From sequence record MT764206.1: a DNA stretch of 64,000 nucleotides; one strand, given 5' to 3'. The notes under the pieces were generated by a model. That model saw only the letters and a program-made list of their open reading frames with translations. It was not told the DNA's origin and searched no databases. Position 1 is the first letter of the stretch. Each line of letters begins with the position of its first letter. Positions 47,490 through 50,062 of the stretch are shown here, in pieces. The DNA comes from Escherichia phage JEP6. Both the position numbers and the translations under genes were made by a program.

Positions 47490-47790
47490 CTTGCGGCAAC
47501 CTTGTCGGGGTTCCACCTGCTAAGGCAAGTGTTTGTACGAAACGCCGGGATTCGAACCCGGTTATTAAGTAGTTGACGCTACTCAATATTTTTAAAAGGC
47601 CATATCTCGACCATATCCGAACGTTCCGTCAAAAACGCTACTCGGCTTATGGCAAAGATATTTCCTCGAATCGATAATTCGGTGCGCCGTTTCTGCTGTG
47701 ATGTAAGAGGGCATCAATAAACGTAAAGATTATTAACGCAATTCCTTACTCAGGGAACATCAGTCCGACGACTTACCGGTAGCGACCCGG
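47490..47790 (-). ncRNA. Small stable RNA region (rnaC/rnaD-like) with tRNA-like 3' domain
   Basis: No ORF; T-arm-like CCGGGTTCGAATCCCGG on the transcript at about 47546-47565; ends at a terminator. Confidence 0.4.
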
Positions 47791-47794
47791 TTTC

Positions 47795-48145
47795 TTAATA
47801 TTCTTTTAAAGAATCAATATATTCACGGCGTTTACGCCACAAATCAATTGCTTCATACGCGGATTCAGCATTTCGAATTAGCCGGCATTTATGTAAAGAC
47901 TTATGATTTTGATATTGTGTAGATAACGGAATTGTATCTAAAAGGTCTTTACGATCAAAATATTCGTAACCATCTAAACCAAATGAACGATTTTTGAGAA
48001 ATTGCCAATGACCATATTCGTTTTCGACATAAACATAATCTGCATGCTGATAAAGCAAATTAATTACACGTTCAGAAATAACAGTATCATTATGATTAAA
48101 ATAGAATGTTAAATCATGAACTACTAAATAAACATTACCTTTCAT
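47795..48145 (-). CDS. Hypothetical protein
   Basis: ATG at 48145 with GAGGAAAAT SD; the longer track ORF would overlap tRNA-Arg. Confidence 0.5.
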   Translation of the reverse strand: MKGNVYLVVHDLTFYFNHNDTVISERVINLLYQHADYVYVENEYGHWQFLKNRSFGLDGYEYFDRKDLLDTIPLSTQYQNHKSLHKCRLIRNAESAYEAIDLWRKRREYIDSLKEY

Positions 48146-48163
48146 ATTTTCCTCACTTATAAT

Positions 48164-48240
48164 TGGTCGAGGCAGAAGGATTCTAACCTTCAACCTACGG
48201 ATTAGAAGTCCGTTGCTCTATACAATTGAGCTATGCCCCG
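48164..48240 (-). tRNA. tRNA-Arg (anticodon TCT), CCA encoded
   Basis: Cloverleaf folded by hand: 7-bp acceptor, GCTC/GAGC D-stem, anticodon loop CTTCTAA, T-arm GAAGG/CCTTC. Confidence 0.8.
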
Positions 48241-48243
48241 TAA

Positions 48244-48909
48244 TTAAAATTTCATTTTTCGACCTTTAAACCATCCTTCTGGAATTGGGTCAGTTTTCTT
48301 AATACGTTTAGAAACTTTTTCATCTAATGAATGAATCCACATCATACCAAATTGGGAATTCTTTTCGCCCTGTTGGTGTTTATTTCTGGCGTGAGATTCT
48401 TTCATTTTATTAATAGTTTCAGGAGTATGATGCTTATTTAAAAATCTGCTATTATTTAAAAATTTTTCCCTGTATTCAGGAGTTGACCACAAGCGTTTAA
48501 ATACATTTGAACCATGTTTACGATATTTTTCTTGAAGTAAAATATCATTTTTAAAACGTGACTTAAACGATTTAGCTCCTTTTAAACTAGCGTCTTTCTT
48601 CTGGTTTAGCATCCCAGGAATATTTATATGATCCCATCCACCTTCACCACCTAATTTCAAATTATAAACATCAGGGCGCTTTAAAAACTCTTCAGTCACA
48701 ATATTCTTTTCTGACTCAAACATAGAGGTTTTATCGTCAAAGAACTCTAATATTTCTTTAGAAAAATTTTCTATACCATACTTATCTTGGGCTCTTTTTA
48801 ATAATTTACCAGAACCCATATATCCATCATCTAAATTTTCGGTAGAATGCACACCAATATAAATTTTATTATTAATTTTATTTGTTATTTTATAAGTGTA
48901 ATGGAACAT
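48244..48909 (-). CDS. segB: GIY-YIG homing endonuclease (SegB-like) in the tRNA cluster
   Basis: HYTYKITNKINNKIYIGV GIY-YIG motif; 221 aa. Confidence 0.8.
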   Translation of the reverse strand: MFHYTYKITNKINNKIYIGVHSTENLDDGYMGSGKLLKRAQDKYGIENFSKEILEFFDDKTSMFESEKNIVTEEFLKRPDVYNLKLGGEGGWDHINIPGMLNQKKDASLKGAKSFKSRFKNDILLQEKYRKHGSNVFKRLWSTPEYREKFLNNSRFLNKHHTPETINKMKESHARNKHQQGEKNSQFGMMWIHSLDEKVSKRIKKTDPIPEGWFKGRKMKF

Positions 48910-48950
48910 AAATATCTCCTATTTCTAAGAGTATTTATGTTCCCAAAATA

Positions 48951-49022
48951 TGGCCCTGGGTGGAATTGAACCACCATCTGGCGATTATGAGTCGCTTGCT
49001 TGAACCTTCCAGCTACAGGGCC
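48951..49022 (-). tRNA. tRNA-Ile (anticodon CAT, presumably lysidine-modified)
   Basis: Perfect 7-bp acceptor GGCCCTG/CAGGGCC; T-arm GGTGG-TTCAATT-CCACC; anticodon loop CTCATAA. Confidence 0.7.
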
Positions 49023-49028
49023 TTGATA

Positions 49029-49101
49029 TGCTGATTGACGGAATCGAACCGCCGACGTCCTCATTACAAGTGAGGTGCTCTACCTACTGAGCTAAATCAG
49101 C
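49029..49101 (-). tRNA. tRNA-Thr (anticodon TGT)
   Basis: Acceptor GCTGATT/AATCAGC; anticodon loop CTTGTAA; T-loop GGTTCGATTCC. Confidence 0.8.
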
Positions 49102-49108
49102 GAAATTA

Positions 49109-49195
49109 CGGAGGCGATAGGATTTGAACCTATGAGTCGCCGGAGCGACTGCCGGTTTTCAAGACCGGTGCATTAAACCACTCTGCCACGCCTCC
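49109..49195 (-). tRNA. tRNA-Ser (anticodon TGA), long variable arm
   Basis: Acceptor GGAGGCG/CGCCTCC; anticodon loop CTTGAAA; 87 nt. Confidence 0.8.
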
Positions 49196-49197
49196 AG

Positions 49198-49271
49198 TCT
49201 CCGTGGCAGGATTTGAACCTACGACATTCTGCTCCCAAAGCAGACGCTCTACCAAACTGAGCTACACGGAG
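49198..49271 (-). tRNA. tRNA-Pro (anticodon TGG)
   Basis: Acceptor CTCCGTG/CACGGAG; anticodon loop TTTGGGA; T-loop GGTTCAAATCC. Confidence 0.8.
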
Positions 49272-49281
49272 TAAATTAAAT

Positions 49282-49355
49282 TGGAGCGGATAATGAGAAT
49301 CGAACTCACATCATCAGATTGGAAGTCTGAGGTAATACCATTATACGATATCCGC
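49282..49355 (-). tRNA. tRNA-Gly (anticodon TCC), CCA encoded
   Basis: Acceptor GCGGATA/TATCCGC; anticodon loop CTTCCAA. Confidence 0.8.
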
Positions 49356-49360
49356 AAATT

Positions 49361-49447
49361 TGGTGCGAGAAGTGGGACTCGAACCCACAAGGAAATCATT
49401 CCGCAGCATTTTAAGTGCTGTGCCTTTACCAATTTGACCATTCTCGC
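49361..49447 (-). tRNA. tRNA-Leu (anticodon TAA), long variable arm, CCA encoded
   Basis: Acceptor GCGAGAA/TTCTCGC; anticodon loop CTTAAAA; T-loop GGTTCGAGTCC. Confidence 0.8.
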
Positions 49448-49453
49448 GTTATA

Positions 49454-50062
49454 TTATTTATTACGTGAAAAAGACTGTTCTATCAATTCTGGACACTTTC
49501 GTTCTATCCATTTTCTAGCTTTTTGTGGGCTTATACCTATTATTTTAGCAGCTTTACTAACCCATCCAAATTTAGAATAATCGATTTTAACTAATTCTTC
49601 GTAAATTTCATCAGTTAAAATCTTTTCATTAATATTTACCAGTAAATGATATAATTTGTTATCATTAGCAATTTTAATGAATCTTTTATAGTTTCCGCCT
49701 TTACTTAAACCTAATGAAGTAATTGCAGATGATATAGTAGCCGAATTTAATAATGCGTTTAAAATTTCTTCATCACTAACATTATAACGCTTTTTATTAT
49801 TTTTAATATTTTTACCAGCAAAAGTATCAGTTTGCGAGTGACAGTTTGGACATAATAATCTTAAATTTGATTTAAGATGATTTTTGTTATTTCCATCAAT
49901 ATGGTCTAATTGCAGAACAATATGCTTATTTTGCCATTTTGAAATTTTACAAATTGCACACTCATATGGAAAAATATTTTCTTTTATTATTTTGTCTTTC
50001 AGCTTTCCTGTGCTAAAATTTGGGTGTTTTCCTTCAAAAATTTCAGCTAATTTAGTATCCAT
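49454..50062 (-). CDS. HNH homing endonuclease
   Basis: LQLDHIDGNNKNHLKSNLRLLCPNCH HNH motif; ATG at 50062. Confidence 0.75.
   Translation of the reverse strand: MDTKLAEIFEGKHPNFSTGKLKDKIIKENIFPYECAICKISKWQNKHIVLQLDHIDGNNKNHLKSNLRLLCPNCHSQTDTFAGKNIKNNKKRYNVSDEEILNALLNSATISSAITSLGLSKGGNYKRFIKIANDNKLYHLLVNINEKILTDEIYEELVKIDYSKFGWVSKAAKIIGISPQKARKWIERKCPELIEQSFSRNK

Follow-up and report, generated by a model that had tools for sequence, protein, structure and literature searches.

The transfer RNA (tRNA) island of Escherichia phage JEP6 lies on the minus strand of a 64-kilobase (kb) stretch of DNA from record MT764206.1, which was compared as a whole (hereafter the window, to whose full length all positions refer), and an HNH endonuclease gene stands at its head, next to tRNA-Leu. 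The window comes from a Tequatrovirus (T4-like phage), since the 915 records matched by positions 47400-50200 in a megablast search of 50,697 phage records were nearly all T4-like coliphages. Exactly seven tRNA genes were found in the 64 kb by ARAGORN, all on the minus strand within 48164-49447, and the Rfam tRNA model recovered the same seven at 59-74 bits, with nothing further above the gathering threshold. The original prediction, made from the letters alone, had listed seven leftward tRNAs, of which the sixth is a CAU-anticodon tRNA that is probably tRNA-Ile2; it had also placed a SegB-like GIY-YIG gene, which proved to be 95% identical to T4 SegB, between tRNA-Ile and tRNA-Arg, and an HNH gene against the 5' side of tRNA-Leu. 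The order in T4 (NC_000866) is trna.2, Gln, Leu, Gly, Pro, Ser, Thr, Ile, segB, Arg, rnaD, rnaC, and comparison with it confirms that the HNH gene occupies the position of tRNA-Gln. What that prediction missed is that the HNH allele is frequent and already annotated in other phages, and that other modules of the island are of T2 type.

Comparison of the window with T4 by blastn gave four matching blocks. The first (50069-50585, 94%) corresponds to T4 upstream DNA and ends within the 5' end of tRNA-Gln, the second (48239-49448, 93%) extends from T4 tRNA-Leu through segB, the third (47453-47795, 97%) covers rnaD and rnaC, and the fourth comes downstream of rnaC. Blocks one and two are separated by 620 base pairs (bp) in the window versus 66 bp in T4. 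Seven phages carrying the HNH gene were fetched for comparison (BP32, slur03, JoYop, Lutter, Pu-Krd-SF6, ES26, and OE5505), and the carrier comparisons reported here span eight genomes. At the 5' junction, the window reads ...TTGTTAATAAT TGGGAATCA TATT ATG... versus ...TTGTTAATAAT TGGGAATTAGCCAAG... in T4; the nonamer TGGGAATTA, present in four of the eight carriers, is exactly the first nine bases of T4 tRNA-Gln. At the 3' junction, most carriers read ...ATAATAT AGC GCGAGAA versus ...TTCCC AGC GCGAGAA in T4, where AGC consists of the last two nucleotides (nt) of tRNA-Gln and the one-base C spacer of T4. T4 homology ends after nt 9 of tRNA-Gln and restarts 1-3 nt before tRNA-Leu, and the junction is the same in all eight carriers. 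Nucleotides 10-71 of tRNA-Gln have been exchanged for a cassette of ~616 bp, nearly all of which is one open reading frame (ORF). The probability of a chance match to the 9-nt stub is ~4e-6, and tRNA-Gln was therefore there first. Judged from these junctions, the HNH cassette replaced the tRNA-Gln gene, as the original prediction had supposed.

The lack of a tRNA-Gln, also part of that prediction, withstood every scan. None was found in the 64 kb by ARAGORN or by Rfam at the gathering threshold, a permissive Rfam scan (E<=5) gave no further tRNA in 46700-50700, and blastn-short with the tRNA-Gln genes of T4 and of L009, another T4-like contig, matched at most 14 nt in any part of the window. 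The idea that a degenerate or hidden tRNA-Gln escaped notice was rejected, as ARAGORN, both Rfam scans, and blastn-short yield just the 9-nt stub; so were a permuted or split gene and an HNH-bearing tRNA intron, since the window lacks the 62 nt from the middle of the tRNA. CAA accounts for 294 of the 423 Gln codons (70%) in the long ORFs of the window. With tRNA-Gln(UUG) replaced, the phage therefore relies on its host for the reading of CAA.

The HNH ORF runs from an ATG at 50062 to a stop codon at 49454-49456, 6 nt before tRNA-Leu. The TTG at 50086, given as the start in an automatic ORF list, was rejected: all orthologs start at MD or MK, and the codons upstream are T4 intergenic sequence. 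The product is matched end to end by phrog_14736, 'HNH endonuclease' (E 5e-124). The signature of HNH (His-Me finger) nucleases is a beta-beta-alpha-metal motif in which a His, most often within DH, acts as the general base, an Asn has a structural role, and a further residue, His or Asn, binds the metal. When 8 or 24 homologs are aligned, residues C35, C38, H54, N66, C71, P72, N73, C74, and H75 are invariant and D53 is nearly so. The original prediction had made the assignment hang on the catalytic residues, and H54, N66, and H75 are all present and invariant in the 24 homologs. By alignment, the protein has all of the H-N-H motif, set on a zinc site of four cysteines, stronger evidence for its class than the Pfam HNH score (PF01844), which at 17.3 bits does not pass the cut-off of 21.4 for this short profile; the homologs P0003 and P0004 have a precomputed PF01844 match. 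The conserved motif GWV..A.K..GISPQK lies in the C-terminal part, which gave weak helix-turn-helix matches. The AlphaFold model, locally confident (predicted local distance difference test, 88.7; predicted template modeling score, 0.48), contains a beta-beta-alpha core with strands at 51-54 and 67-70 and a helix at 72-76, followed by helical domains. Sequence searches with the HNH protein gave nothing significant in the PDB, with marginal matches at most, and marginal matches only in NCBIfam; Foldseek gave weak local matches (E>0.9) to McrA, Cap5, Gme HNH, and PtuB, and weak resemblances to homeodomain or helix-turn-helix folds, and the structural evidence as a whole was given no weight. Among the eight carriers, 19 codons of the HNH gene vary, 14 of them by synonymous changes only, including those of D53, N73, C74, and H75, while 5 change the amino acid; the protein is therefore under purifying selection. 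The coding sequence thus describes an intact nuclease under selection, with predicted activity.

Table 1. Features of the JEP6 tRNA island and its borders, listed in the leftward direction of transcription
Feature	Position	Strand	Remarks
trna.2 homolog, 97 amino acids	50173-50466	minus	Last ORF before the tRNA cluster; 94% DNA identity to T4; phrog_2023
Middle-promoter-like element	50145-50169	minus	MotA box TGCTTTA at 50163-50169, 12-nt spacer, TATTAT at 50145-50150
5' remnant of tRNA-Gln, 9 nt, TGGGAATCA	50067-50075	minus	TGGGAATTA in T4 and in 4/8 carriers
HNH endonuclease gene, 202 amino acids	49454-50062	minus	N-terminal HNH with Cys4 zinc site; C-terminal helical domain, helix-turn-helix-like
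3' junction, AAC	49448-49450	minus	AGC in most carriers
tRNA-Leu(UAA)	49361-49447	minus	Identical to T4 gene (ARAGORN, Rfam)
tRNA-Gly(UCC)	49282-49355	minus	Identical to T4 gene (ARAGORN, Rfam)
tRNA-Pro(UGG)	49197-49271	minus	63/74 positions match T4; 11 differences (ARAGORN, Rfam)
tRNA-Ser(UGA)	49108-49196	minus	Identical to T4 gene (ARAGORN, Rfam)
tRNA-Thr(UGU)	49029-49101	minus	One mismatch to T4; no encoded CCA (ARAGORN, Rfam)
CAU-anticodon tRNA, T2 type	48951-49022	minus	Labelled Met by ARAGORN
segB, GIY-YIG homing endonuclease gene	48244-48909	minus	209/221 residues (95%) identical to T4 SegB
tRNA-Arg(UCU)	48164-48240	minus	Non-T4 allele (ARAGORN, Rfam)
ORF116, function unknown	47795-48145	minus	phrog_3355; not in T4, in many relatives
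rnaD (species 2 RNA) homolog	47681-47795	minus	98.3% identity to T4 rnaD
rnaC (species 1 RNA) homolog	47536-47674	minus	98.6% identity to T4 rnaC; contains T-arm-like GGTTCGAATCC
Intrinsic-terminator-like hairpin	47462-47485	minus	Closes the tRNA/small-RNA unit after rnaC

Searches of phage records by tblastn showed 63 that encode the HNH protein with at least 95% identity, one copy each, which is ~12% of the 534 records matching this locus. The canonical trna.2-Gln-Leu junction occurs in 446 records and tRNA-Gln in 467, one of which has two matching places (468 in all); no HNH carrier was found among the tRNA-Gln records in the matches listed. The locus is a presence/absence polymorphism at a fixed site with precise junctions, 446 Gln versus ~63 HNH records, and in every annotated carrier that was fetched the HNH gene lies between trna.2 and tRNA-Leu with equal spacing. 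Downstream, the carriers display at least five tRNA architectures: segB may be present or absent, as may Tyr, Asn, and His, and an ORF may stand instead of Thr. Within 35 bp upstream of the junction they fall into at least four haplotypes, each of which recurs in phages with the Gln allele (that of ES26 in L005, that of OE5505 in L004). Mean pairwise DNA identity among the eight carriers is 98.7-99.4% for the HNH gene, 96.0% for trna.2, and 96.8% for the tRNAs beyond Leu. This pattern of one origin, many backgrounds, and slightly greater uniformity than the flanks looks like that of a horizontally spreading gene, and free recombination among T4-like phages could add to it. The Tequatrovirus tRNA-Gln itself occurs as two alleles, 135 records being at least 95% identical to T4 and 332 at ~89%. 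They differ (L001 5459-5531 versus L004 5392-5465 and L005 5903-5976) in the anticodon stem and loop only, with a full compensatory stem swap and a loop of CTTTGAC versus TTTTGAT, a difference that might represent evasion of a nuclease reading the anticodon arm.

A search of 5.8 billion proteins yielded one cluster at 100% identity, then orthologs at 68% and 58%, and then a long tail at 35-45%. Both orthologs occupy the same syntenic spot on other T4-like contigs, after homologs of trna.4, trna.3, and trna.2 at the head of the tRNA cluster. In L009, which encodes the 68%-identical ortholog, the HNH gene begins 14 nt after an intact tRNA-Gln(UUG). The nearest sequenced relatives of this contig are Klebsiella Marfaviruses, about 25 of which were among the matches listed, all without the HNH gene. 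Relative to one of these, PhiKpNIH-6 (L114 986-1074), L009 contains a 614-bp cassette (4984-5597) in place of 89 bp holding tRNA-Asn; homology breaks exactly at the last base of tRNA-Gln, and the tRNA-Gln of L009 has gained an encoded CCA and a T-loop change. On this alignment, the orthologous cassette overwrote a tRNA gene a second, independent time, in another genus and with tRNA-Gln at its left edge.

A phage tRNA cluster is the setting of every further full-length homolog that was placed. Six of 16 non-redundant homologs (<70% identity, sharing the C-terminal domain) have a tRNA(UUG) at most 75 bp upstream on the same strand, and the Gln stub of the window would make a seventh such case. 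Because tRNA(UUG) makes up just 3-8% of the tRNAs in homolog loci, its 6 of 14 upstream neighbours is far above expectation (binomial ~6e-4 at 8.4%, a figure that ignores shared ancestry). The sequences of these HNH-adjacent tRNA(UUG) genes diverge widely. Exact-pattern IMG/VR scans for HNH-less sister alleles of the distant Gln-HNH contigs gave the same contig or nothing, and an IMG/VR scan with the trna.2 protein returned six loci, too few for statistics. Metagenomic contig L028 (80-1038) has an HNH homolog (226-960) between two tRNAs with UUG anticodons, the upstream one 87 nt long with a long variable arm and the downstream one 74 nt long and starting 4 nt past the stop codon. In L019 (3001-4436), a 42%-identical HNH homolog is followed by two tRNA-Lys genes and then a SegE-like GIY-YIG ORF, a pairing of HNH and GIY-YIG genes in a tRNA cluster that parallels the window. 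For the wider family, related through the HNH domain only, 80 IMG/VR loci (L033-L112) were sampled; 75 of them contain tRNAs within 3 kb, 612 in total, and roughly half have a tRNA no more than 120 bp away on either side. In this family, a tRNA often starts 0-20 nt from the stop codon, and Leu(UAA) is the commonest neighbour on both sides.

The closest characterised relative of the HNH protein is F-TflIV of phage T5 (35% identity over 170 amino acids, residues 16-184, E 2e-22, BLASTP). F-TflIV, encoded by hegA, is described as a site-specific HNH DNA endonuclease of the T5 tRNA cluster (Akulenko et al. 2004, as cited in PMC2330249 and PMC5714182). The two proteins have in common a CxxC...CPNCH HNH domain, a helix-turn-helix-like C-terminal domain, and the motif GW..K..G(I/L)S, and both are encoded by free-standing ORFs directly behind a tRNA gene, or its remnant, within a phage tRNA cluster. 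F-TflIV differs in belonging to another phage family, in following tRNA-Ile2(CAU) rather than Gln, and in having ~55 additional N-terminal residues; its activity has been demonstrated experimentally, whereas that of the JEP6 protein is predicted. A second parallel is T4 SegB, which cleaves at the T-psi-C motif of tRNA genes and, when T4 is crossed with T2L, drives transmission of the T4 tRNA region (PMC2330249), and which amplifies tRNA-Tyr against Septu (PMC13096335). Like the HNH gene as interpreted here, segB is a free-standing homing endonuclease gene of the same island, co-transcribed with tRNAs, whose product targets tRNA gene DNA and whose spread replaces neighbouring tRNA genes of the recipient. 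In contrast to the HNH enzyme, SegB has an unrelated GIY-YIG fold and a known recognition site, and its gene lies between tRNA genes instead of substituting for one. The free-standing T-even homing endonuclease genes MobA-E, Hef, and SegH, which occupy alternative alleles (PMC2988022; Sandegren et al. 2005, as cited there), provide a third comparison. This group resembles the HNH gene in being HNH-type and free-standing, in its presence/absence or replacement alleles among close relatives, and in self-immunity through target sequence differences. Its members lie between or beside protein-coding genes, whereas the HNH gene of JEP6 replaces a tRNA gene. As for close sequence kinship with this group, no T4 record was among the tblastn matches listed, and no direct test was made.

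Expression of the HNH gene probably depends on a middle promoter. The consensus of T4 middle promoters is well known, and an element resembling it follows directly after the trna.2 stop codon in a stretch identical in T4 (Table 1), where the depositors of phage Lutter annotated a promoter. From this arrangement, the HNH gene is probably co-transcribed with the tRNAs, which would put its ORF at the front of the tRNA precursor transcript. Ribonuclease P cleavage at tRNA-Leu would end the HNH message 6 nt past the stop codon, and a cut so near the stop should hold expression low; a similar arrangement has been proposed to keep SegB expression down (PMC2330249). The enzyme is thus expected in small amounts. 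In a mixed infection, it would nick or cut a Gln-bearing rival genome within the tRNA-Gln gene or close beside it, repair with the HNH genome as template would convert Gln to HNH, and the carrier genome would be immune because its target has been deleted.

The HNH gene is probably a free-standing homing endonuclease gene whose target lies in or beside the tRNA-Gln gene, within a mosaic T4-like tRNA island. The sequences show directly how the locus is built, that tRNA-Gln was replaced, that the nuclease is intact and under selection, that both alleles circulate in the population, and that the family is tied to tRNA clusters and tRNA-Gln; nuclease activity, target site, homing, and mode of expression are inferred from them. 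Several findings weigh against it. Its weakest step is the target, as the cleavage site cannot be derived from sequence alone; the Marfavirus-like ortholog spared tRNA-Gln and removed tRNA-Asn, which leaves room for a target outside Gln. Across the wider family, the neighbours are diverse, the most frequent being Leu(UAA), Tyr, and Gln(UUG), with Leu(UAA) and Tyr at least as frequent as Gln. A Foldseek search with the full model found no significant match in the PDB. The ATG has a weak Shine-Dalgarno sequence, and the cassette's own ribosome-binding site, seen in L009, is missing. The identity gap between the HNH gene and its flanks is modest and comes from eight genomes. Finally, the allele is present in ~12% of records, whereas a strong drive might be expected to have made it commoner; the loss of a CAA-reading tRNA plausibly carries a cost, which may explain the absence of a sweep.

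In an unlikely alternative, the HNH gene is a domesticated or decaying non-homing remnant, the Gln/HNH polymorphism is kept by ordinary recombination, and the Gln loss was a one-off deletion. The weak ribosome-binding site and the frequency of only ~12% accord with such a remnant, the single junction in all carriers indicates one origin, and the very free recombination of T4-like phages can alone spread one allele over many backgrounds. However, the 14 synonymous-only versus 5 changing codons, with the catalytic codons preserved, argue against decay, and both the greater uniformity of the HNH gene relative to neighbouring trna.2 and the second independent replacement of a tRNA by the orthologous cassette in another genus also count against this reading.

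Still less likely is action on RNA or in defence, with a tRNA such as host tRNA-Gln, or the DNA of a competing phage or the host, as substrate, so that the link to tRNA clusters would reflect function and not an insertion target. Homing endonuclease genes typically form presence/absence alleles with replacement junctions as precise as these, the nearest characterised relative, F-TflIV, is a site-specific DNA endonuclease, the C-terminal domain resembles a DNA-binding helix-turn-helix, and JEP6 has no tRNA-Gln of its own to compensate. Such a role would nevertheless agree with the cleavage of tRNA-Tyr by Septu HNH nucleases (PMC13096335), with the wide differences among adjacent tRNA(UUG) genes, which would be hard to accommodate in one DNA recognition sequence, and with the phage tRNA-Gln that several relatives carry beside the nuclease. 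That tRNA-Gln was ancestrally absent, gained later by T4, and never replaced by the HNH gene is very improbable, since the orthologous HNH genes at the same locus in distant T4-like phages, which could be read this way, are outweighed by the tRNA-Gln stubs retained at the junctions, 9 nt from its 5' end and 2 nt from its 3' end, which contradict it, and by the majority status of a Gln allele that itself exists in two diverged forms.

Returning to homing, the Marfavirus case and the recurrent Gln-HNH adjacency would place the target in the 3' part of tRNA-Gln or at the junction behind it, a placement put forward only as a hypothesis because the neighbours in the wider family and the tRNA(UUG) sequences are diverse. 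A broader proposal, to be regarded as tentative and with some doubt, is that the HNH clade homes to the 3' side of tRNA-Gln(UUG) across unrelated phage groups and overwrites whichever tRNA lies at the break, Gln in Tequatrovirus and Asn in Marfavirus. If this were true, selfish nucleases would help to decide phage tRNA sets, beyond codon usage or host defences that target tRNA, and the HNH gene and SegB would bracket the Leu-to-Ile tRNA block, driving it as a unit.

The remainder of the island is a mosaic of T4-type and T2-type modules. The segB gene lies between the CAU tRNA and tRNA-Arg, its position in T4, and its product scores 25.9 bits against Pfam GIY-YIG, above the cut-off. The CAU tRNA is 65% identical to T4 tRNA-Ile and identical to the allele of slur03, JoYop, and OE5505. 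Its acceptor stem contains C4-G69 and C5-G68, and its anticodon stem-loop matches that of E. coli ileX; it is therefore read as probably a tRNA-Ile2 (with lysidine). The T2L counterpart was called tRNA-Met in the SegB paper (PMC2330249). An encoded CCA on the CAU tRNA, found in other phages, is not present in the window or in L003, and the segB-bearing segment starts right behind the discriminator base of this tRNA. The tRNA-Arg(UCU) has the anticodon of its T4 counterpart but no alignable similarity to it, and the module that it forms with ORF116 (47795-48240) is 96-97% identical to JoYop and OE5505; the module is probably a T2-type allele, here joined directly to a T4-type segB.

The original prediction also described a small-RNA region with a tRNA-like T-arm. 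The region exists, with rnaD and rnaC homologs 98% identical to those of T4, but ORF116, of 116 amino acids, intervenes and separates tRNA-Arg from rnaD. ARAGORN calls a 94-nt 'tRNA-Lys' or 'tRNA-Stop' downstream of tRNA-Arg at the rnaD/rnaC position in L002 (2578-2671) and L007 (6580-6673); it makes no such 94-nt call at the rnaD/rnaC region of the window. The plus-strand ORF at 49281-49580 was rightly dismissed as spurious and has no gene support, although it overlaps two tRNAs (Gly and Leu) and 127 nt of the 3' end of the HNH gene rather than four tRNAs. Beyond the island, ORF157 (46934-47407, phrog_2280, function unknown) is not found in T4. On either side of it stands a copy of the terminator hairpin after rnaC, forming a 36-nt direct repeat (46894-46929 and 47453-47488, 86% identical), and a T4 late-promoter-like TATAAATA lies just upstream; ORF157 has the look of a small cassette whose insertion duplicated the terminator.

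Literature searches found no published description of this HNH/Gln replacement. T-even phages are well known to harbour genes of this kind; dozens of GenBank records already annotate the HNH gene, which is experimentally unstudied, and the case itself is an ordinary homing-endonuclease polymorphism of these phages. Some novelty attaches to the two independent, precise substitutions of tRNA genes and to the family's tie to phage tRNA clusters and tRNA-Gln. Natural E. coli phages with and without the gene are available, making the system tractable for asking whether HNH enzymes of the F-TflIV type recognise the DNA of tRNA genes and what cost tRNA loss carries. The tRNA sets of phages are now read as adaptations to codon usage or against tRNA-cutting host nucleases, as with Septu and tRNA-Tyr (PMC13096335). 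The present locus reveals another force, in which a selfish nuclease gene has deleted the tRNA for CAA, 70% of the phage's Gln codons, and the resulting allele persists in about one in eight sequenced Tequatroviruses.

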